IMG/VR virus record: IMGVR_UViG_2718218358_000004
DNA: 35,636 nt
Source of the DNA: a virus
Taxonomy: Duplodnaviria > Heunggongvirae > Uroviricota > Caudoviricetes
Reading direction: 5' to 3' (one strand)
The number at the start of each line of letters is the position of its first letter. Position 1 is the first letter of the stretch. The notes beneath the pieces were generated by a model, which saw nothing but the letters and a program-made list of their open reading frames with translations, searched no databases and was not told the origin of the DNA. The position numbers were made by a program, and so were the translations under genes. Positions 10,145 through 34,433 of this stretch are shown here, one piece after another.

Positions 10145-10717
10145 TCAGGGGGATTCACTGCTCTTATTTGCCGGAAATTTTCTATAAATGGTAGAAACGC
10201 CCACATCAAAAATCAGTGCAATACGCTGTCTTGATTCTCCGGCCTCTAGTAAACGTCCAATCTGTGCCCACTGTTCGGTGGTCAACTTAGGGCGGCGTCC
10301 ACCTACTCTGCCTTTGTCGCGAGCTGCAGCAATCCCCGCCCTGGTACGTTCAACTATCAGTTCGCGTTCCATTTCAGCCAGGGCACCCATGACATGAAAA
10401 AAGAAACGGCCCATTGGGGTACTGGTATCAATACTGTCAGTCAGGCTTCTGAAATTCACACCACGCTGGCGTAACTCTTCTATCAGCGTAACAAGATGCC
10501 GCATACTGCGCCCCAACCTGTCCAGCTTCCAGACAACCAGCGTGTCTCCTGCCGATAGTGTCCTGAGCAGTTTTTTCAGCCCCGGTCTGTCGGACTTAGT
10601 GCCGCTGATTTTATCCTCAAAAATCCGCTCACATCCCGCGCAGTTCAGCGCACTACGTTGCAAATCGGTGTTCTGGTCATTTGTTGACACGCGTACATAG
10701 CCAATAAGCATGATCAT
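10145..10717 (-). CDS. serine DNA invertase (Hin/Gin/Cin/Pin family)
   Basis: 190-aa ORF; N-terminus GYVRVSTNDQ with catalytic Ser, LVVWKLDRLGRS, C-terminal HTH GVSTIYRKF; near-identical in pattern to Hin/Pin as remembered. Confidence 0.9.
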   Translation of the reverse strand: MIMLIGYVRVSTNDQNTDLQRSALNCAGCERIFEDKISGTKSDRPGLKKLLRTLSAGDTLVVWKLDRLGRSMRHLVTLIEELRQRGVNFRSLTDSIDTSTPMGRFFFHVMGALAEMERELIVERTRAGIAAARDKGRVGGRRPKLTTEQWAQIGRLLEAGESRQRIALIFDVGVSTIYRKFPANKSSESP

Positions 10718-10766
10718 CTCCTTGAATAAAAATCGGGGATGATGCCAGTTAGTCGTAATAGCTGCA

Positions 10767-10792
10767 TTTTCTTAAACGTTGGTTTGGGAGAA
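10767..10792. other. invertase crossover site (hix/gix/cix-like), right
   Basis: TTTTCTTAAACGTTGGTTTGGGAGAA; inverted copy of the site at 12615-12640 sharing the 12-bp half-site TTCTCCCAAACC. Confidence 0.55.
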
Positions 10793-11260
10793 GGTTCAGC
10801 ATTACCTGTTGGTGCGCCTGTTCCGTGGCCTTCAGAGACACCTCCAACAGGCTGGCTGAAATGCAACGGGGCGGCTTTTTCTGCTGAAGAATACCCGGAA
10901 CTGGCAAAGGCTTACCCGACAAATAAATTGCCTGATTTACGAGGTGAATTTATTCGTGGCTGGGATGATGGGCGCGGTATTGATGCAGGACGTGCTTTAT
11001 TGAGCCTTCAGGCTGGGATGCTGGAAAAGCACCGTCATATTGTTGTTGCCAATGATGGTTACGACACAAAAGATGAATGGGAACTGGCTACGATTTTCAA
11101 AAAGACATACACACAAGGACGGGGACTTGATGCCACAAATACAGGAGGGAGTCTGATCCCATCACCGACACTTCATTCACGAGGGAGTATCGGTAATACT
11201 GGCGGGAGTGAAACCCGTCCACGAAATATTGCATTTAACTTTATCGTGAGGGCTGCATAA
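10780..11260 (+). CDS. alternative tail-fibre C-terminal segment (currently not fused to H)
   Basis: Open frame from the crossover site; encodes GLGE motif at the crossover identical to that in H (aa GLLAYLGLGE); the upstream Met at 10739 in the ORF track is probably not a real start. Confidence 0.65.
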
Positions 11261-11862
11261 TGGATAACGCCGTATTAAATAGCGAGCTTATTGCCACGAA
11301 GGCGGGGAATATTACCGTCTATAACTATGATGGTGAAACTCGGGAATATATTTCCACTTCAAATGAATATCTTGCCATTGGTGTCGGTATCCCTGCATAT
11401 TCCTGTTTAGATGCCCCTGGCACACATAAGGCGGGTTATGCTATCTGCCGTTCGATGGATTTAAACTCATGGGAATATGTGCCAGACCATCGCGGTGAAA
11501 TCGTTTTTAGCACCAAAACAGGGGAATCAAAAGAAATCACAGCTCCGGGTGATTACCCTGATAATACAACCACTATCGCCCCGTTAACGCCATACGATAA
11601 ATGGGATGGTGAGAAATGGGCGACGGATACCGAGGCACAGCACGGCGCAGCAGTAGATGCAGCAGAAGCACAGCGCCAGTCGCTGATTGATACTGCAATG
11701 GCCTCCATCAGTCTGATTCAGCTGAAATTGCAGGCCGGACGTAAACTGACGCAGGCAGAAACAACCCGCCTTAACGCTGTGCTGGATTACATTGACGCGG
11801 TGACGGCAACAGATACCAGCACCGCGCCGGATGTCATCTGGCCTGAACTGCCGGAGGCGTAG
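11260..11862 (+). CDS. alternative tail-fibre assembly protein (Tfa')
   Basis: 200-aa ORF with conserved Tfa C-terminal motif (LDYIDAV...TS.APD..WPE.P); 3' ends overlap the active tfa gene convergently. Confidence 0.75.
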   Translation: MDNAVLNSELIATKAGNITVYNYDGETREYISTSNEYLAIGVGIPAYSCLDAPGTHKAGYAICRSMDLNSWEYVPDHRGEIVFSTKTGESKEITAPGDYPDNTTTIAPLTPYDKWDGEKWATDTEAQHGAAVDAAEAQRQSLIDTAMASISLIQLKLQAGRKLTQAETTRLNAVLDYIDAVTATDTSTAPDVIWPELPEA

Positions 11863-12277
11863 GCCATTCAATATCTGGCGCACCGGAAGTATCAACCAGC
11901 TCCAGTGCGTCCAGATAATCCAGCCACAAATTATATTGCGCCAGTTCCTCATCTTTCAGACGACCAATAGCGGCTTTACCGGGCCATTGCTTACTGTTCA
12001 TGTGTTCGTTGGCCTGATTAAGCAATAATTGTCTTTCTGATTCTGCCTGTTGAATAAGTTCTTCATGTGATGGTTGAGGTATTTCAGCCCATGTGGGAAA
12101 ACCATTTACCCCTGCAACTCGGATTTTCCCTTGTGGCGGTTCCGCCATATATTTTACAGAAATGTTATCAGGAATATCTAATGCATCAGCGGGCCATGTT
12201 CCATTTACTTCATAAGTATTTTTTAAATTAACAGCATAAAATGCATTTTCCGAAGGGGAATAAATATATTGATTCAT
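11834..12277 (-). CDS. G: tail-fibre assembly protein
   Basis: 147-aa ORF immediately downstream of H with conserved Tfa C-terminal motif. Confidence 0.8.
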   Translation of the reverse strand: MNQYIYSPSENAFYAVNLKNTYEVNGTWPADALDIPDNISVKYMAEPPQGKIRVAGVNGFPTWAEIPQPSHEELIQQAESERQLLLNQANEHMNSKQWPGKAAIGRLKDEELAQYNLWLDYLDALELVDTSGAPDIEWPTPPAVQAR

Positions 12278-23885: not shown

Positions 23886-24910
23886 TGGGAAAGAGTAAGA
23901 AAAACCGCGCTGCGGCGACGAATCAGCTCAAGCATAAAAGCCAGACTTCAGCCGAAGCATTCAGCTTCGGTGATCCCGTTCCTGTACTTGACCGCCGCGA
24001 ACTGCTGGACTATGTGGAATGCGTACAGACAGATCGCTGGTATGAGCCTCCTGTCAGCTTTGACGGACTGGCGCGCACCTTCCGCGCTGCCGTGCATCAC
24101 AGTTCACCAATTGCGGTGAAATGCAACATTCTGACCAGCACCTACATCCCTCACCCGCTGCTCAGCCAGCAGGCTTTTTCGCGTTTTGTACAGGACTATC
24201 TGGTTTTTGGTAACGCCTACCTGGAAAAACGCACGAACCGCTTCGGAGAGGTCATCGCTCTTGAGCCTGCGCTGGCAAAATACACCCGACGCGGGTTAGA
24301 CCTAGATACCTACTGGTTTGTGCAATACGGTATGACAACCCAGCCGTATCAGTTCACGAAAGGCAGCATCTTTCATCTGTTGGAACCGGACATCAACCAG
24401 GAGATCTACGGCCTGCCCGGTTATCTTTCTGCCATTCCGTCAGCTCTGCTCAACGAGTCCGCCACGCTGTTCCGCCGCAAGTATTACATTAACGGCAGTC
24501 ATGCAGGCTTCATCATGTACATGACCGATGCTGCGCAGAACCAGGAGGATGTGAACAACCTCCGCAATGCGATGAAAAGCGCCAAAGGACCAGGTAACTT
24601 CCGCAATCTGTTTATGTACTCGCCTAACGGCAAAAAGGACGGACTTCAGATCATCCCATTGTCAGAAGTCGCGGCGAAGGATGAGTTTCTGAATATCAAA
24701 AATGTCAGCCGCGATGACATGATGGCAGTGCATCGTGTGCCACCGCAAATGATGGGGATTATGCCGAATAATGTTGGGGGGTTTGGGGATGTGGAAAAAG
24801 CGAGTTTAGTGTTTGTGAGGAACGAATTAATACCCTTACAGAAAAGGATGCAGGAATTAAATAAATGGCTTGAAGATAATATATTACAATTCAAACCATA
24901 TAAATTTTAA
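23882..24910 (+). CDS. Q: portal protein Q
   Basis: 342-aa ORF overlapping P stop; last ~30 codons are AT-rich. Confidence 0.9.
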   Translation: MMGKSKKNRAAATNQLKHKSQTSAEAFSFGDPVPVLDRRELLDYVECVQTDRWYEPPVSFDGLARTFRAAVHHSSPIAVKCNILTSTYIPHPLLSQQAFSRFVQDYLVFGNAYLEKRTNRFGEVIALEPALAKYTRRGLDLDTYWFVQYGMTTQPYQFTKGSIFHLLEPDINQEIYGLPGYLSAIPSALLNESATLFRRKYYINGSHAGFIMYMTDAAQNQEDVNNLRNAMKSAKGPGNFRNLFMYSPNGKKDGLQIIPLSEVAAKDEFLNIKNVSRDDMMAVHRVPPQMMGIMPNNVGGFGDVEKASLVFVRNELIPLQKRMQELNKWLEDNILQFKPYKF

Positions 24911-24918
24911 CGAAAAAT

Positions 24919-24947
24919 CAGCCTTAGCGTTCATAACGTTAGGGCTG
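24919..24947. terminator. hairpin between convergent Q and RT genes (candidate bidirectional terminator)
   Basis: 13-bp stem (with two G-U pairs on the plus-strand RNA) and 3-nt loop, 24919-24947; U-run follows on the minus-strand transcript. Confidence 0.45.
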
Positions 24948-24951
24948 TTCA

Positions 24952-26898
<1,947 letters not shown>

Positions 26899-26950
26899 TC
26901 AACTTTCTGTTTTCCAGAAGTATTTTGGCTATTTTCGGTGATAGCGCGCG

Positions 26951-26969
26951 CTCGTATCCCCGCCACGCC
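26951..26969 (-). other. candidate cos (cohesive end) site
   Basis: Minus strand reads GGCGTGGCGGGGATACGAGCGCGCGC; first 13 nt match the P2/186 cohesive-end sequence as I remember it (GGCG[A/T]GGCGGGGA), followed by a GCGCGC element also recalled from P2. Confidence 0.45.
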
Positions 26970-27348
26970 TGCCCGCTTTATGCAGTGGTTTTCATGCACA
27001 TGCATGACATGAGCAAAAGCCCGCCAGTTCTGGCGGATCTGAGCAAAGACGATCCTCAATCGATCATGCGATTTCATGCAGCATAGTCATGCACTGTCAA
27101 GGAAGTGAAAATCCGTATCTGAATGGCCACTTGAAAAACGGATCATACGGGTTTACAAAGATGAATGTTCGCTGTGAACGGGAAGCGGAAGTTAACTTTC
27201 AGATAACATAATCCATATGCACGAGAACCTCTAAAATAGAATGGGACACCTAAGCGGGGTACTTACAACGATTCTTTCCATATTCACAGTTAACACTCTG
27301 TTTGGCGTATTTTTATTCAAATAGCAAACACCAATAAAAGGAGTTTCC

Positions 27349-27684
27349 ATGAACAATATTCCCCCTATACCACAGTTAGGAATTTATGTCTCAAAAATCG
27401 ATCCCACCCTACGTATCACTGTAACCGATGTTGATATTGTTGATGGTGAGGATGATTCTCCTGATGATGAATTGTTTTATTTAGTCCACTGGATCGAGGG
27501 GGAAGATGAAAGTGATATGACAGCAATGGGATTTGAGCTAGACCCAGTAGAGTGGCAGGCTTTCGTTGAATCTGAGCAATTAGTGTTTGAGCGTGATCCG
27601 TACATGGATTCAATCCCCGAAAATTCAAACTTGGCAAAGATTCGGGATTTTCTCATGAAGACTAAACAGAATGATCATTCGTAA
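27349..27684 (+). CDS. hypothetical acidic protein (orphan accessory gene)
   Basis: 111-aa ORF with strong Shine-Dalgarno (aaaggag, 7-nt spacer), AT-rich, about one quarter Asp/Glu; opposite orientation to flanking phage genes. Confidence 0.6.
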   Translation: MNNIPPIPQLGIYVSKIDPTLRITVTDVDIVDGEDDSPDDELFYLVHWIEGEDESDMTAMGFELDPVEWQAFVESEQLVFERDPYMDSIPENSNLAKIRDFLMKTKQNDHS

Positions 27685-27838
27685 GTGTAAGCATCCATCA
27701 GGAAAATGGTTTTGTAAGTGAATCATCAACTTTTAGAGAGTCTCAGACACTCCCACTTCTGCTTCTGACACAAAGCGGACGATCACTTATCAAAATAACC
27801 GCCCACCTTACGCCTTATTTCACTCATTGCCCAAACTA

Positions 27839-27868
27839 GCCCCCATCAGAATGAATCCTCCTGGGGGC
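27839..27868. terminator. possible hairpin between convergent acidic ORF and DinI-like gene
   Basis: 7-bp GC-rich stem gccccca/tgggggc with 16-nt loop; weak U-run. Confidence 0.3.
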
Positions 27869-27876
27869 AACATTTC

Positions 27877-28110
27877 TTAATGCAGCCAGCTGTCGTCCTC
27901 CCACACCTTCTGCATAATTTTCATCACTTGTTTTCTTTCTTCATCCAGTTGCAGTCCGGTTAGTTCCACACCGTTAGAGCTACCTTTGCGAATGCGAATT
28001 ACCGTTTTGGGATACAGGGGGCGCAGATTGCGGTAAAGCTCGGATTCAAGTGCGTCCAAGGTAGACTGGCTAATCTTCTGCTCTTTATCGATCATTATTT
28101 CAATGCGCAT
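27877..28110 (-). CDS. DinI-like protein
   Basis: 77 aa from MRIEIM; pattern matches E. coli DinI (MRIEV...LxxELxxR...WExxDxW) as remembered. Confidence 0.7.
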   Translation of the reverse strand: MRIEIMIDKEQKISQSTLDALESELYRNLRPLYPKTVIRIRKGSSNGVELTGLQLDEERKQVMKIMQKVWEDDSWLH

Positions 28111-28120
28111 AAAAGTCACC

Positions 28121-28309
28121 TCAGCTGATGACATCCATTGAGCGGTTGTATTCGTGGCTTCTGATTTTTGCCATGAGTTCATCAGTCAATTCAGAAACCC
28201 ACTGCAGAGCCAGCCCCTTCTCTTCATCACTACACTCACTAGCCGCTACAAGCTTAAGAAAAAAATCAATGCGCTGGAGCTTCAAAGACTCCAAAAAATA
28301 GTCCTGCAT
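28121..28309 (-). CDS. small protein, first gene of LexA-box operon (possible Tum-like antirepressor N-terminal part)
   Basis: 62-aa ORF directly downstream of a LexA box and 10 nt upstream of the DinI-like gene. Confidence 0.45.
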   Translation of the reverse strand: MQDYFLESLKLQRIDFFLKLVAASECSDEEKGLALQWVSELTDELMAKIRSHEYNRSMDVIS

Positions 28310-28351
28310 CTTTCCTCCTATGACACCAAAACAATACTGTATACATAACCA

Positions 28352-28367
28352 CTGTTTATATTTACAG
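28352..28367. promoter_or_regulatory. LexA box (SOS operator)
   Basis: CTGTTTATATTTACAG = CTGT-N8-ACAG consensus, 43 nt upstream of the 62-aa ORF start. Confidence 0.65.
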
Positions 28368-28461
28368 TATATAATAATCTTACTGATGTAAAACGTTTTT
28401 TTACGTTCATCGGCCTGATATGCCTGGTATTATTAAGAGCACGAATTGTTAACCCGCGTAA

Positions 28462-30882
28462 TTAATACAGGTTCCGCCACTTATCATCTTCCCTCAGACG
28501 CTGGTTCCGATAGAAGATACGCAGGCCTGCTCCTGACGGAATACTGCCGCCGCGAAGGAGCAAATCGACTTCTTTCTCGCTGCCATCAAATCCCCTGGAC
28601 TTCAGTTCATAGACGAGCTGCTGTCGCTGATGGTCTGTAATTCGCTGTTTGTAGTCTTTACGCCGTTTCGGTTTCACCTGGCGTAACCTTGCAGCCAGTT
28701 CCCGGCGCTCTTTTTTGCTCATACTGTGCAGGTAATCGTGCAACTCCTTGTCATTCATACGGGTAATATCCGTTCTGGAGTCCCCATCAGCTGATTTGTC
28801 TTTCCCTTGTTGGTTCAAATTTTCAGCAAGGGGACAGTTATTGCCACGAGTCCAAGGGGCGCAAGCGCCCTGGTCGGCTGCCGCCTCCTGAACGTCAACG
28901 GCCTTACGAACCATTTTCCACTTCACCGCATGAGTGCAGATCTTGCCCTCTGCAATGGGTGACCAGATGCCATAAATACGAATACCGTGATCGCCATATG
29001 CGGTCGGTTCTTCGTTGATTTCATAAGCAGTTCTGATGAGGTGATATTTGCGGGGAACCAGTACGCCGCCCTGCTTCATGATGTAGGTGGCAAAACAACC
29101 AGCATCAGCAGCAGCCAGGATTGCATCAAGGCGCGGGTTATCCAGTACCGGCGCACCTGCTTTTTTGTCACCCTGTTGCCTTGCCGCCTGACCAGCCAGC
29201 AATCGCAGTTCACGGTAAGCCTGACGCCCCGGAATGCCAAAGAAGCGGAATTGCTGAACACGATGCAGAGACGCCCAAGCATTAACGTATTCAGCGTTAT
29301 CACGCAGGGATTTACCCGTTTCCTTGCTGATCTCCCCAGCCAGACCACGCCCGTCAATGTTCTTACTGATGTATTTCGCGATATAGCTTGTTGGCGTACC
29401 TTTGCGCGGGTTTATCAGCTCAGACTTAAAGCGTGGTCCCGTGTTATTGCCCAGCTCCTCGCGGTCTTCACGGATGGCAAACTTACGCAGTAATGCAGTG
29501 ATGGCGCGGCGGTCTTTTTTACGCATGAAACACATGAGATGCCAGTGCACAGTACCGTCATGATGCGGCTCAGCTACCCGCACGCCATACCAGCGCAACT
29601 CGGCTTTATGCATAGCCTTACGAAATGCAGCAAACATGCCGACCAGATAATCGCTACTTTGTCTTACCGTCGCGTTTGTCCAGGTCGGGTTTGGTCTGCC
29701 GTTATTGAGCGTGGAATGGAAACGCGACGGACAGGTGATAGTGTAGAAAACGGCACAGTCACTGCGCATTTCCGCGATAAGCTCCAGACCTTTAACACAG
29801 GCCATCATCTCATTGCGGCGATGCGCCGGGTTGCTGCTGCTGGCGTTTACCACATCTTCCATATCCAGCGTGTCGCCGTCTTCGTTCACCAGTTCATGAG
29901 AACGAAAAAACTCCAGCGACTTACGGCGCTGCTCACGTTTATGCATCACGGCTTCATAGCTGACATAGGGGGATGCTTTTTTGCTGACCAGGCAGACAGC
30001 ACGCAACTGCTCTTCCCGCCATTCGCAACGCATCTTCCATAATTTCCGATACCACCAGTCGGCACACAACATACGCGCCAGCGAACCCGGGATGAGTTCA
30101 TAGGGCACTGGTTTGCGGCGGTTTCTTTTCCGACGAAGTTTCTCAAACGCAGGCGGGATAACATCCAGACGCAGGGTTTCCGCTGCCACCTTTTCCCATG
30201 TCTTGCGGATTTCTTCTGGCTTAACGTCATCGGTGGCATACAAATCACCACAAGCGTCCTCAAGACACATGCTCATATGCGCTGCTACCAGGGTGGACAG
30301 GCGTTTCACCTGATCCTGGCTCATTTCAGGCAGGATCAGCAGCCCCTCCAGCCCTTGATGGCTTGCCATAAAACGGAAAGAAACAGATAGCTGACTGTCA
30401 CGTACACAATCCAGTCGCTCCAGACATGGCTTAATCGTCTCACGCAAATAGCGGGAATAAGCCTTTGGCCTGCCCAGGCTGCTGAAGTATTCAATACGTT
30501 GCATCAGCGGCTTGCTGATATGGGAAGGCTGGGCGTTTACGTCCGCCAGAATGACCATGTCCGGATTAAAACGCTGCTGCTCATGCGCCAGCTTTGCCCG
30601 GCTAATGAGCTTATCCTGCTCCATTTCGCGCTGGACAGGATCACGGGATTCATTAAAGAAATAACGCTCCCAGACCTGCTCACTCAGTGCCTCGCGGCGC
30701 AGTTGTTCCTGCTCGTTATCGGCAGCGTACAGAGTGATCAGGTTTGAAAGTGCAGACTCCGGCGCAACTTCCGCCGGGTCCAGATAAGGGTTAATGGCCT
30801 TTTTCGAGCCGTTCCATGAAAATGCTGCGGCGGCCTCGTTAAAGCCGCTGCAATTGTTCATATCGTCATGACTCATACACAC
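28462..30882 (-). CDS. A: replication initiation endonuclease A (rolling-circle initiator)
   Basis: 806-aa ORF at P2 gpA position with P2 A-like size; start may be a few codons internal. Confidence 0.85.
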
Positions 30883-31730
30883 ACTCCGTACACGGCAGAA
30901 CTATCCACGCCACGCGAAGGATCAAATCCCAACCAGCAGCTCGGCCCGGAAACAGCAATGATTTCTGTTGCAGATTTACCCTCGCCAGCTGACACGCCGA
31001 TGCTGCGTTTTGCCTTGATATAGTGGTGAGTAAAATTGCGATACAGCGAACGAATCAGGGATGTGTCATTGTTAGAAACAATGACCGGATGTCCTTCTGA
31101 TGACCGATGTTCAAGAATGGATGCCAGGTGATACTGGTCATCTTCAGTGAAACCATCAGTGTGATAGCCGGAAAACGTACCGTCATACGGCGGATCGCAA
31201 TACACCACATCCTCCACCTGCAGCATCGCCAGCGTTTCATCAAAGCTCGCGCAGATAAACGTTGCCCGCTGGGCTTTCTCTGCAAATGCGCGAATTTCTT
31301 TTTCAGGGAAATACGGATTTTTATAATTACCGTAGGGAATGTTGAAATACCCGCTCTTGTTATAGCGACATAAACCACGGTAACCGTGACGATTGAGATA
31401 CAGGAAATATATCGCCTTCATGAAATCAGTAATTTCAGTTGAGTAATTAAACTCCTGTCTTATGTTGTAATAAGCCAGCTCACTGTTTGCTTCCTCAAAT
31501 AAAACTTTGGCACGAGATATAAACGCTTCGCAATCAGCGGCAATCTTTTTATAGAGGTTGATTAAATCAGGATTAATATCCGCAACCAGATAGCTGGGGT
31601 AATCCGTCGCCATCATCACAGCACAAGAACCCGCGAAAGGTTCAACCAGTCGCGGGCCAGCAGGAAGGTATTTTTTCAGTTCGGACATAATGGCGGTTTT
31701 ATTACCCGCCCATTTCAGGATGGTGCTCAT
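30873..31730 (-). CDS. dam: DNA adenine methyltransferase (Dam family)
   Basis: 285 aa from [11 protein letters not shown]; motifs [36 protein letters not shown] closely resemble E. coli Dam as remembered. Confidence 0.85.
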
Positions 31731-31954
31731 ACAGCACCTCTGTTGTAATGTTTGCCTTTCAGCTCTGCGATTTCCTGGCAGGTAATGCAAAGCTGCACTC
31801 CAGGAATGGCACGGCGGCGTGCTGGCGGAATTGGCGCTTCACACTCAACGCAAAGCACGCGGGACACGCCCGGCGTTTTGGCACGGGCAGCACGGATATG
31901 GCGTTGGCGTTCTTCTTCAACGCGCTGCTGTACGAGATCCATTGCATCAGCCAT
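31727..31954 (-). CDS. TraR/DksA-family C4 zinc-finger protein
   Basis: 75-aa ORF with CVECEAPIP...CITCQ four-Cys motif; analogous to P2 orf82. Confidence 0.7.
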   Translation of the reverse strand: MADAMDLVQQRVEEERQRHIRAARAKTPGVSRVLCVECEAPIPPARRRAIPGVQLCITCQEIAELKGKHYNRGAV

Positions 31955-32193
31955 CAGTGGATCTCCTGCGCTTCGTTCTGGATTGCTTCAGCAGTCACAC
32001 GCAGCAGTTCTGCCGCTTCGACGTGGTTTAGCTGGCGGGAGGTGATATGACACGCCAGGCTATCGAGGCGAGCAGCCATTGCTTCAGCCCTTGCCCGGCG
32101 TTCTTCCAGACGAGCCTCTGTCAGTAAAAGATTAAGACCTGCATCATCCGGTCCGGTTTTGGTCGTGAGGGTTTCAATATTACGCATAAGCAA
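31954..32193 (-). CDS. hypothetical early-operon protein
   Basis: 79-aa ORF, start/stop coupled with flanking genes. Confidence 0.5.
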   Translation of the reverse strand: MLMRNIETLTTKTGPDDAGLNLLLTEARLEERRARAEAMAARLDSLACHITSRQLNHVEAAELLRVTAEAIQNEAQEIH

Positions 32194-32254
32194 TTCTCCT
32201 GAATTTAGATAAAGGGATGCCCGGCGGGTTTACGCCATTAATTTCATTAGTTGG

Positions 32255-32596
32255 TTAATTCGGCATGGTTAGCCGTCTGGGAAATAAGCTCACCACTGCA
32301 CGAAAATGATTCATTGCTTTAATCAACTCCCGCTTTTCGTCAGTGGTCAGCTCATTAATGCTGATGCTATGACGTTCAGCTGGAATTTTTGCCATAAAGA
32401 ATATGGCAGCCAGTGCCCGTTTATTTTGTTCATTATTGATATCCCGTGGATCACGCATATCTTTAATAAACCGCTCAAGCTCTGACTCAATATTCAAACC
32501 AAAAACTTTCGCCCTTAACTCCGCAATATGATTAAGTCCATTCAGGCGTTCACCGGGTCTTAATGGAACAGTCGCCGCAGCGCCTTCAATAGCCAT
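32255..32596 (-). CDS. hypothetical early-operon protein
   Basis: 113-aa ORF in the early operon downstream of cII. Confidence 0.5.
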   Translation of the reverse strand: MAIEGAAATVPLRPGERLNGLNHIAELRAKVFGLNIESELERFIKDMRDPRDINNEQNKRALAAIFFMAKIPAERHSISINELTTDEKRELIKAMNHFRAVVSLFPRRLTMPN

Positions 32597-32760
32597 TTGT
32601 TCCCCCGTTTTTTCGTAGATAGTTCTGCCAGTAATTCATCTTGTGAACGGCACGGATGCCAGCGTTTTCCATCCTCACCCATGATCCAGCCGTGACCGTA
32701 GTGCATTGCCGGGCTTTGCTTTACCAGCAGCGATGCAAATGATGGTTCTTTCGTCAGCAT
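32560..32760 (-). CDS. hypothetical early-operon protein
   Basis: Start assigned to Met11 just after the cII stop; small basic protein. Confidence 0.4.
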   Translation of the reverse strand: MLTKEPSFASLLVKQSPAMHYGHGWIMGEDGKRWHPCRSQDELLAELSTKKRGNKWLLKALRRLFH

Positions 32761-32767
32761 AAGCACC

Positions 32768-33283
32768 TCACAGCAAACCGAATGAAGCACCGAGGCCAGT
32801 CACGGTATCAACTGCACTCGCCATCGCAGGGTTAGCCTGTAAACGGGCCTGCAATGAAACAGCAGCCAACGCCATCAGTCGTGTTACAGAGTTAATGCTG
32901 CTGATAGCATCACGACGACCTGCACTGGTTTTTACATCGCCAGATACCGCACCTGCAGCAACACGCCCGATCTCTGCGGTTGCACTCATGACGTAATGTG
33001 GCAGTTTCTCTTTTGCCACCTCATTAATCGGTACGCATGGCAGGCAGTGAATCTGAGCCAGAAAACCATCTACCAGAGTTGAATCTTCAGTCAGATCGGT
33101 AAGCAGCCAGATTTCTGGTGCGGTTAATAAATGAGGTTGCGCTGGGTTCAACTTGTTCCGCAGAATCTGCACATTCATGCCAGCACGTTCTGCCAGTTGC
33201 ACCAGGTTGTGGCGCAATGCGAATGCACGACAGGCTTCATCAAAATGTGGATGTTTGGAAACTTGGTAATCAAACATGGTCAA
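32768..33283 (-). CDS. cII: CII-like transcriptional activator (186 type)
   Basis: 171-aa ORF, second gene after apl, length close to 186 CII (169 aa). Confidence 0.7.
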
Positions 33284-33309: not shown

Positions 33310-33531
33310 CTAATTAAGGTTTAGATTGCATTCTGAAAGCGCATCAACGGTCATTGCTGCTATGTTGATCATCACTTTTTCGCGTTTTTTATCTTTGCGC
33401 AGTCGGTGACGGATAAGGCGTCCATCAGCCAACATGTCATTGATGGTATCGATGGATAGCCCTGTCAGCTCGCTATAGCGTTCAATAGTCACATGAGGGG
33501 TGGTAAGAGTGATTGAAATGTTAGGTCTCAT
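33310..33531 (-). CDS. apl: Apl/Cox-like excisionase-repressor
   Basis: 73-aa basic HTH protein, first gene of the early operon divergent from cI. Confidence 0.65.
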
Positions 33532-33650
33532 GATGCAACATTCCTCGTTTAATGATGATTAATCAGGACGAATACGGATCGTTTGTATTTTGTGAACACC
33601 ATAAACATACGATCGCACAGTGAAATCGTCAAGATAAAAGTTCACTTGGA

Positions 33651-34226
33651 GTGACCATGAATTTGGAGAAAGGCGGACGAGGCGCTATAGAGCGCATGGT
33701 AGAAGCTTATGGATTCAAGACTCGACAGGCGTTGTGCGATCATTTAGGAATCTCTAAAAGTACACTCGCCACACGCTACATGCGTGACTCATTCCCAGCA
33801 GAATGGGTAATCCAGTGCGCCCTTGAAACAGGCACCTCGCTTAATTGGCTCACAACCGGGCATGGTTCAAAGCAAACTTCAGGTAATACAAATACTATGG
33901 AAGTTGCTAAATATGTATTATCTGATGGGGCCTTGTGTGAAGACGGTTTTTATATTTTCGATAGAGAATTTCTACCGTCGGCATTCAAGAATCTTTTTGT
34001 AATCACAGATAATAATTCTGAATTTATTTGTGATAAGGAATTTGATGATATACGTGATGGTAAATGGGTAATAAGTATTGATGGCGAAATAACGATCCGT
34101 GACATTACTCGTTTACCCGGTGGAAGAATCTTCGTCGAGGGTGGAAACAGAGCCTTCGAGTGCAAGATAGAAGATGTTGAAATAATTGGGAAAATTATAA
34201 GTTTAACAATTAAGTACGTTAGGTAA
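33651..34226 (+). CDS. cI: CI immunity repressor (186 type)
   Basis: 191-aa ORF; N-terminal HTH (EAYGF...CALETG..L.WL.TG) and length match 186 CI as remembered. Confidence 0.75.
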   Translation: MTMNLEKGGRGAIERMVEAYGFKTRQALCDHLGISKSTLATRYMRDSFPAEWVIQCALETGTSLNWLTTGHGSKQTSGNTNTMEVAKYVLSDGALCEDGFYIFDREFLPSAFKNLFVITDNNSEFICDKEFDDIRDGKWVISIDGEITIRDITRLPGGRIFVEGGNRAFECKIEDVEIIGKIISLTIKYVR

Positions 34227-34241
34227 TACCGGGAGGAAACT

Positions 34242-34433
34242 ATGCTTGGTAAGGTATTTTTTGTGGTTTTATCATGCTCTTTGTTATTAAACCCACTAAC
34301 TACCTATGCTAAAAATTATCCTTGTTCTGGGAAAAAGGGAGGTGTCTCTCACTGTACCTCCGATGGAAAGTTCGTTTGCAATGATGGAACTATTAGTAAA
34401 TCAAAAAAAATCTGTACTAAAAACTCGCGATAA
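34242..34433 (+). CDS. small secreted cysteine-rich protein (orphan accessory gene)
   Basis: 63-aa ORF with strong SD (gggagg), N-terminal signal peptide, four Cys in the ~40-aa mature part, AT-rich. Confidence 0.5.

Follow-up and report, generated by a model that had tools for sequence, protein, structure and literature searches.

The window analysed here is the whole 35,636-nucleotide stretch of IMG/VR virus record IMGVR_UViG_2718218358_000004 (Caudoviricetes), which holds a P2/186-like prophage carrying retron Ec67. On its minus strand, at 30873-31730, lies a gene (dam) for a DNA adenine methylase, directly ahead of the gene for the replication initiator A. The best explanation of this gene, and in our judgement a reasonably probable one, is that it encodes a working orphan GATC-specific phage Dam, which is made together with A and keeps the replicating phage DNA methylated. 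The gene has been known since 1990, and it is a routine annotation in hundreds of P2/186-like prophages. Only the patterns in GATC content, at the early lytic promoter pR and at the cohesive-end site cos go beyond the literature that was reached, and these are put forward as hypotheses.

Under this explanation, dam would be transcribed from the CI-repressed pR within one operon that consists of apl, cII, fil, a DUF5347 gene, a DUF2732 gene, a TraR-like gene, dam and A. Its translation would be coupled by ATGA overlaps both to the preceding gene and to A, which follows, and operon and coupling together would mean that the enzyme is made exactly at the start of rolling-circle replication. The phage Dam would then keep the rapidly replicating DNA, with its 110 GATC sites, fully methylated while the host Dam is limiting, and full methylation would spare this DNA from GATC cutting by MutH or by GATC-specific restriction enzymes. 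In this chain, we infer when the gene is expressed, that the enzyme is specific for GATC in vivo and that its role is protective; observed are its family, its motifs and contact residues, its genetic setting with the coupling signals, its intact state in relatives and the difference in GATC content from relatives that lack Dam.

The methyltransferase, its operon and the GATC content

The dam open reading frame (ORF) is 858 bp long, runs from an ATG at 31730 to a TGA at 30873-30875 and encodes 285 amino acids. An earlier note on this DNA had proposed a Dam-family adenine methyltransferase at 30873-31730 without stating the strand, and these coordinates are exact, with PF02086, TIGR00571 and the structures of Escherichia coli Dam (EcoDam) in agreement on the family. 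The program-made ORF list puts the start farther upstream, at a TTG at 31790. PGAP calls the same ATG at 31730, with the name 'DNA adenine methylase', in a genome that is 100% identical over the segment, and a GAGG Shine-Dalgarno sequence lies 6 nt upstream of this ATG. The protein covers the whole Pfam profile PF02086 for D12-class N6-adenine methyltransferases (positions 1-253 of 253; E 2.7e-75, 253.8 bits, cut-off 22 bits), and the TIGR00571 'dam' model gives it 317.2 bits (cut-off 114.85 bits). With NF008152, the equivalog model for chromosomal Dam, it reaches only 284 bits, which is under the cut-off of 441 bits and marks the gene as a phage paralogue rather than the dam of the host. The closest solved structures are those of EcoDam (2G1P and others, E 6e-73), followed by DpnM and T4 Dam (E 6e-16). 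Of 258 residues aligned with EcoDam, 46.5% are identical; for the full-length proteins, the figure is 42%. The 90%-identity cluster that holds the window protein contains 651 sequences and is named only 'DNA adenine methylase'.

The catalytic motif IV, DPPY (aa 179-182), is coded by GATCCGCCGTAT at 31185-31196 on the minus strand and aligns with EcoDam D181-Y184. It is preceded by motif I, which is the alpha-class order. In the alignment with EcoDam, the motif I region that binds S-adenosylmethionine includes F-A-G-S (aa 32-35, at 31626-31637 on the minus strand) within the longer sequence EPFAGSC (aa 30-36); the Phe and the first Gly of FxGxG are kept, and the second Gly is Cys36. This Cys variant is probably functional, although it is non-canonical. 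In EcoDam, K9 and Y138 recognise the first base pair of the target, Y119 intercalates, N120 forms a hydrogen bond to a base, L122 and P134 contact the third base pair, and R124, as the main discriminator, touches the guanine of the fourth (PMC4417163). The GATC-reading residues K9, Y119, L122, R124, P134 and Y138 correspond to K6, Y117, L120, R122, P132 and Y136 in the window protein. Thus six of eight EcoDam GATC-contact positions are identical, the key discriminator R124 (R122) among them, so that the window protein is expected to be specific for GATC. In short, EcoDam and the window protein have in common the Pfam and TIGR families, the alpha motif order, DPPY and the six reading residues; apart from the level of identity, they differ in a C-terminal tail of 15-20 aa, in the substitutions N120R and R137N and in the motif I Cys. 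They also differ in setting, as EcoDam is encoded in the damX-dam-rpe locus and the window gene is phage-borne and sits in a lytic operon.

Directly upstream of dam is a gene for a TraR/DksA-type C4 zinc-finger protein (31727-31954, minus strand; PF01258 E 4.4e-11, TIGR02419 67 bits). Its stop codon and the dam start share an ATGA overlap at 31727-31730 (GAGGTGCTGTATGAGC), and a second ATGA, at 30873-30876, joins the dam stop to the start of gene A; both overlaps are on the minus strand, and Shine-Dalgarno sequences accompany them at both dam ends. Gene A (28462-30876, minus strand) encodes the replication initiator, a rolling-circle nickase (Phage_GPA E 3.6e-127; 'replication endonuclease' in PGAP), and contains an ori-like sequence at ~28834-28863, to which the ori sequences of P2 and 186 align. 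Beyond the TraR-like gene, the early operon continues on the same strand with a DUF2732 gene (31954-32187), a DUF5347 gene (32255-32596), fil (32560-32760), cII (32768-33277) and an apl-like gene (33310-33531). This gene order is the same in phages 186, PSP3 and Fels-2. The sole promoter-like site on the early-gene strand (33632-33604) adjoins cI. It is the predicted pR, TTGACG-17-TATGTT at 33604-33632 on the minus strand, which was found by a promoter scan and lies beside cI as the annotated pR of 186 does. The CI repressor gene itself occupies 33657-34226 on the plus strand (PGAP and 186 annotation).

At or near the junctions between the TraR-like gene, dam and A, no terminator-like or promoter-like site was predicted on that strand; there are three weak terminator-like matches, all of them inside the coding regions of the TraR-like gene and A. 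The claim of the earlier note that dam is co-transcribed with A in the early operon is supported by all of this, the two genes sharing a strand, a 4-nt overlap and junctions free of predicted terminators and promoters. According to the annotation of phage 186, pR beside cI is repressed by CI, and translation of orf84, the ORF upstream of A, to its end appears to be necessary for the translation of A. By analogy, dam would be translationally coupled to the initiator A, and it would be silent in the lysogen and switched on early after induction or infection.

The gene is an orphan methyltransferase, as the earlier note had proposed from the lack of an adjacent restriction gene. Its neighbours are the TraR-like gene, the DUF2732 and DUF5347 genes and A, and no restriction nuclease was annotated or matched anywhere in the prophage, either in family searches or in the PGAP annotation of the whole prophage. 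One sizeable ORF, at 27349-27684 (111 aa), is without assignment and gave no family match. A change in host GATC methylation patterns, which had also been suggested, is unlikely, since the host Dam has the same specificity and dam should be silent in a lysogen if pR and CI act as in 186.

The evidence that bears most directly on a role for the enzyme comes from the number of GATC sites. The prophage has 110 of them (3.35 per kb), with an observed/expected ratio of 0.72 by a second-order Markov estimate, which is within the range of other palindromic tetramers; a depletion of GATC in this prophage is thereby ruled out. For comparison with relatives, 73 IMG/VR loci were taken that have a gene A of the window type and sufficient sequence upstream of it. 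In these Dam-positive loci, the median observed/expected ratio is 0.80, with a median of 3.5 sites per kb. In 76 loci with a gene A of the 186 type and no Dam, the corresponding medians are 0.34 and 1.3 per kb (Mann-Whitney p ~1e-26 for the ratios), and phage P2, a single genome that also has no Dam, stands at 0.20, with 25 sites or 0.74 per kb. Other palindromic tetramers have ratios of ~0.9-1.0 in both groups of loci. Avoidance of GATC in enterobacteriophages was described by McClelland 1984, and cutting of under-methylated phage DNA by MutH was proposed as a cause by Deschavanne & Radman 1991 (both as cited in PMC5014478). Host Dam methylates fast-replicating phage DNA poorly (PMC5014478), and Bobonis et al. 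note that endogenous Dam is limiting for DNA of high copy number (bioRxiv 10.1101/2020.06.22.160242). The simplest reading of the contrast would be that a phage Dam which fully methylates replicating genomes removes the pressure to purge GATC. This suggests that the enzyme lets this phage lineage keep its GATC sites, and the lack of GATC avoidance is also indirect support for an enzyme that methylates the adenine of GATC.

Several points weigh against this explanation or soften it. The contrast in GATC content spans about three lineages (window-type, 186-type and P2), so that shared ancestry could explain it. E. coli already methylates GATC, and any benefit would hence be quantitative rather than qualitative. 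The selective agent may be MutH, restriction enzymes or something else. Finally, two of the contact positions have changed (EcoDam N120 is R118 here, and R137 is N135), and together with the Cys in motif I these changes make an altered preference for flanking sequence possible. Even so, sister lineages with and without Dam amount to a natural experiment, and GATC usage differs about four-fold between them. If the patterns hold under phylogenetic control, both the avoidance of GATC by enterobacteriophages and the purpose of phage Dams would become testable in a tractable temperate phage.

The retron-Ec67 element and the distribution of the gene

The prophage of the window has ybjM, ybjL and the small RNA gene rybB (2700-2778) on its left. 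The late genes come first (ogr, D, U, T and so on to portal and terminase), then the retron, an operon of tumA/DinI-like genes behind a LexA box, A, dam and the TraR-like gene. These are followed by the DUF2732 and DUF5347 genes, fil, cII and the apl-like gene, and then by the divergent cI, a small YdcA-family gene and int at the right edge. A 26-bp repeat is found at 2765-2790, and a second copy, with 24 of 26 bases identical, lies before rcdA, 591 bp past the window end in the genome NZ_CP101920 (E. coli QA-1986 630), which is 100% identical to the window over 24900-32200. The two repeats bound an element of ~33.5 kb. Integration is at the 3' end of rybB, where the 26-bp core of the attachment site overlaps the rybB terminator.

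The retron, consisting of msr-msd and a fused reverse transcriptase (RT) and Toprim gene, occupies 24952-26880 on the minus strand. Its RT-Toprim ORF (24952-26712, 586 aa) is an exact-sequence match to UniProt RT67_ECOLX and scores 705 bits, with a cut-off of 450, in the model NF038237 (retron_Ec67_fus, retron Ec67 family RNA-directed DNA polymerase/endonuclease). Rfam at gathering thresholds returned RybB only and no retron msr family; the retron RNA was therefore placed by means of the RT and of the 13-nt inverted repeats (a1/a2) at 26868-26880 and 26750-26762, which bracket msr-msd. The longest RT ORF (24952-26892, 646 aa), which is the PGAP call in NZ_CP101920, starts 60 codons early and runs through msr-msd. 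A 64-aa ORF that PGAP places across cos, at 26883-27077, is probably spurious. The cos cohesive-end sequence, GGCGTGGCGGGGATACGAG, is at 26951-26969 on the minus strand and shares 14 of 19 bases with that of P2; of the 40 bases beside it, 31 agree with the right end of 186, and the same 19-mer is present in 72 of 75 Dam-positive relatives. After the portal gene, which ends at 24910, comes a terminator-like hairpin (24921-24948) that lies between the stop codons of the portal and RT genes. The retron is thus located between cos and the portal terminator, with cos ~70 bp upstream of msr. On the linear virion genome, the retron would be at the extreme left end, and dam, A and tum would be at the right end.

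This layout has been described before. As quoted in PMC7826664, Hsu, Inouye & Inouye 1990 reported a 34-kb element with 26-bp direct repeats and an internal Dam gene, and the title of their paper (PNAS 87:9454) speaks of 'Dam methylase functions' encoded by the Ec67 element. In a passage quoted in the same source, Dodd & Egan 1996 placed the retron between cos and the terminator of the packaging genes in a prophage related to 186. The earlier note had likened the window to the element around retron Ec67, and the likeness is borne out by the identity of the RT to RT67_ECOLX, the 26-bp repeats, the size of ~33.5 versus 34 kb, the placement of the retron, with cos on one side and the portal terminator on the other, and the presence of a Dam gene inside. 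Because all of these agree with the element of 1990 and 1996, the gene in the window is a rediscovery of the published one. The two genes are equated via the match of the elements; the name 'Retron EC67 DNA adenine methylase', which is used in annotation elsewhere, was not shown for the window protein in a cluster look-up and a homology search, and the tie to a named UniProt entry was made for the RT only. The enzyme of the original element is said to be 44% identical to E. coli Dam.

Within the prophage, the methylase is a gene of the phage backbone and no part of the retron. It is present in 1238 of 5426 complete E. coli genomes, or about a quarter, and nearly always in the order TraR, DNA adenine methylase, replication endonuclease, and the 7.3-kb segment from the retron to dam is at least 80% complete in only 14 genomes. 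With these numbers, the methylase cannot be called linked to the retron. The same order of TraR-like gene, dam and A is found, at 76-95% DNA identity, in the retron-free phages Klebsiella 4LV2017, Escherichia Cartapus, Salmonella RE2010 and Fels-2, and near-identical genes occur in prophages and phages of Escherichia, Klebsiella, Salmonella, Citrobacter, Enterobacter and others. The Dam genes of 4LV2017, Cartapus, RE2010 and Fels-2 (STM2730) are as long as that of the window and likewise sit between a TraR-like zinc-finger gene and A. Phages of the Fels-2 type also share a GATC in pR and GATCs near cos, but they are without the retron and have different immunity regions and a different cargo beside cos.

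Among the 73 relatives, the dam ORF is intact in every case (282-286 aa, 72-99% identical), which speaks for selection on a working enzyme, and all 73 have the motif I variant PFAGS. DPPY is at the expected position in 70, the other three being shifted by an indel. In 69, motif and contact residues are all the same; a single change, P132T, is seen in one locus, and an indel shifts the remaining three. The junction between the TraR-like gene and dam, TGTATGA, is kept in 72 of 73, and the 4-nt overlap of dam with A likewise in 72 of 73 relatives tallied (59 ATGA, 13 GTGA). Five loci of the window-type group seemed to be Dam-less, and all of them are cut by a contig end or split.

What varies between phages is the content of the slot between the TraR-like gene and A, with three genes in 186, gp35 in PSP3, orf83 in P2 and dam in the lineage of the window. 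In the three other phages, the slot has an equivalent place in the early operon, and its last ORF overlaps A as dam does here; for 186, the annotation lists the slot genes (orf81-orf84) as non-essential. However, the slot proteins of 186, PSP3 and P2 are unrelated to Dam and include no methyltransferase, and these phages strongly avoid GATC. In 186 (L004, 2891-4748), the slot holds an exonuclease-like gene, a DUF5405 gene and a gene similar to 3'-phosphoadenosine-5'-phosphosulfate (PAPS) reductase. In an E. coli prophage of NZ_CP027440, a gene of the PAPS-reductase family is annotated within the same matched 7.3-kb segment as Dam. The slot upstream of A behaves as a hotspot for DNA-modification genes.

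Alternative roles for the enzyme

Some features of the GATC sites hint at a regulatory methylase, the main role of which would be to set the methylation of a few GATCs at pR and cos, with early transcription, cos cleavage or both requiring full methylation. We regard this as possible though doubtful. In the window, a GATC at 33611-33614 lies in pR, one base upstream of the -10 hexamer. When the best sigma-70-like site 230-650 bp upstream of cII was picked in each locus, without reference to GATC, a GATC was found at this spacer position in 66 of 73 Dam-positive loci (23 of 27 distinct ones) versus 13 of 76 Dam-less loci (5 of 40 distinct). It spans at least eight clearly different spacer families, which are heteroimmune promoters with varying flanking bases, and Fels-2 has it too. 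As dam is transcribed from pR, a pR that is sensitive to methylation would form a feedback loop. At cos, three GATC sites at 27036, 27051 and 27062 (27036-27065 in all) are candidate Dam targets and lie to the right-end side of the cos cut, at distances of 70, 85 and 96 bp. In the Dam-positive lineage, the 125 bp on this side of cos are conserved, with GATC near-invariant at -96 and -85, a pair 11 bp or one helical turn apart, and with additional sites at -104, -70, -40 or -141 in sub-lineages. In 43 distinct Dam-positive flanks, GATC ranks third in enrichment among all 256 tetramers (2.72 per flank vs 0.43 expected), outranked only by a CATG/GCAT repeat motif that is common to both lineages; at least two sites are present in 98% of these flanks, and Dam-less relatives have 0-1. 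There is a precedent in phage P1, an orphan Dam phage like T4, where clustered GATCs in the packaging site make pac cleavage dependent on adenine methylation (Sternberg & Coulby 1990, as cited in PMC4190342). P1 differs in its headful pac packaging and in its different, larger methylase, and the likeness to the cos of P2/186-like phages is a lead only. IS10 pIN is another methylation-dependent control site. Taken further, Dam could be wired into phage control, with pR and cos sensing a fully methylated as opposed to a freshly replicated copy by means of the feedback loop and a checkpoint similar to that at P1 pac, an idea we would hold only tentatively. If true, such a loop and packaging checkpoint would be undescribed for cos phages of the P2/186-like family. 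On the other hand, the loci are close relatives, and the sites may have been kept through common descent, or because a protein binds a motif in which GATC occurs by chance. A GATC abuts the -10 hexamer in two Dam-less promoter families as well, so that this site may be ancestral and merely tolerated, and the Dam-positive locus L081 (IMGVR_UViG_2537561782_000009) has a cos flank of the 186 type without GATC. The host Dam would methylate the sites at pR and cos anyway, and there is no GATC cluster at the ori-like site. Within the window alone, the GATC triple is no unusual feature, as 44% of random placements give one somewhere (p ~0.44); it gains interest only from where it lies, next to cos, and from the fact that relatives have it too. 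Clustering of GATC at the replication origin is ruled out, with no GATC within 75 bp of ~28834-28863. Locus L081, which has a cohesive end as well as a cos flank of the 186 type, is an apparent recombinant.

The methylase could also be an anti-restriction or host-range factor that guards incoming or outgoing DNA from systems similar to DpnII, MboI or Sau3AI, rather than from mismatch repair. This overlaps with the best explanation, and the two could hold together, but as the main role it seems unlikely to us. Near-identical genes across varied genera of Enterobacteriaceae would fit with such a factor, and in lactococcal phages, a phage-borne Dam-type enzyme protects against DpnII (PMC4190342); the retron literature likewise describes phage Dam as a function against restriction-modification systems (including bioRxiv 10.1101/2020.06.22.160242). 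But the listed hosts are Dam-positive, so that progeny DNA is already largely methylated at GATC, and methylation-sensitive GATC nucleases cannot coexist with a host Dam unless they are very rare. Early expression after induction or infection would moreover come too late for the incoming genome. As the methylase shares a prophage with retron Ec67, it would be natural to read the two as one functional unit, in which Dam methylates the multicopy single-stranded DNA (msDNA) of Ec67 or controls expression of the retron. In favour of this, overexpressed Dam, P1 Dam included, triggers retron-Sen2 via a GATC in the msDNA hairpin (bioRxiv 10.1101/2020.06.22.160242), phage Dcm triggers retron Ec86, and the three GATC sites near cos are 145-175 bp upstream of msr. 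Yet there is no GATC in 26712-26892, the region that holds the msr-msd of Ec67, which means that the resident Dam cannot mark msDNA-Ec67; an action of Dam on this msDNA is ruled out. Between the GATC triple upstream of msr and the retron lies cos, and the triple is conserved in the 73 retron-independent relatives, which makes it a feature of the phage lineage and not of the retron. The retron and dam are ~4 kb apart in different transcription units, with gene A, the LexA-controlled operon and cos between them. The distribution data, with 1238 Dam genomes against 14 that hold most of the segment from retron to dam, and with the shared TraR-Dam-A order in the retron-free Fels-2, 4LV2017 and Cartapus, largely refute a partnership, and we consider it highly improbable. 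Dam and retron are compatible, not coupled. This corrects a natural misreading, in that the methylase is a gene of a cargo slot in the phage backbone, coupled to the initiator, and not a retron gene. Since phage Dams trigger some retrons, a prophage that has both a Dam and a retron with GATC-free msDNA is a tidy example of compatibility.

Other features of the prophage

Between cos and gene A, a near-consensus LexA box, TACTGTAAATATAAACAGT, is found at 28351-28369 on the minus strand, with a second CTGT-like element just downstream. It precedes the tumA/DinI-like operon of two genes (28121-28309 and 27877-28110), the SOS-inducible antirepressor module that 186 and PSP3 are known to have. The 111-aa ORF at 27349-27684 (plus strand) is acidic and lies in a cargo region of low GC content between the DinI-like gene and cos. 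It has no Pfam or NCBIfam match and is annotated as DUF8087 in some genomes. As it is at the position of orf97 in 186 and of old/tin in P2, it is a candidate for a defence or exclusion cargo gene.

At 10145-12277, a recombinase (invertase) gene lies beside oppositely oriented cassettes of tail-fibre and tail-fibre-assembly genes, an arrangement that suggests an invertible host-range segment. In NZ_CP101920, where the prophage is otherwise identical, an IS66-family insertion adjoins the tail-fibre gene here; the window is free of it, and that genome is hence a close relative only. Between cI and int, a small YdcA-family ORF (34242-34433, plus strand) has an N-terminus resembling a signal peptide. 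It is presumably expressed together with the repressor in lysogens, and is thus a possible lysogenic-conversion gene.

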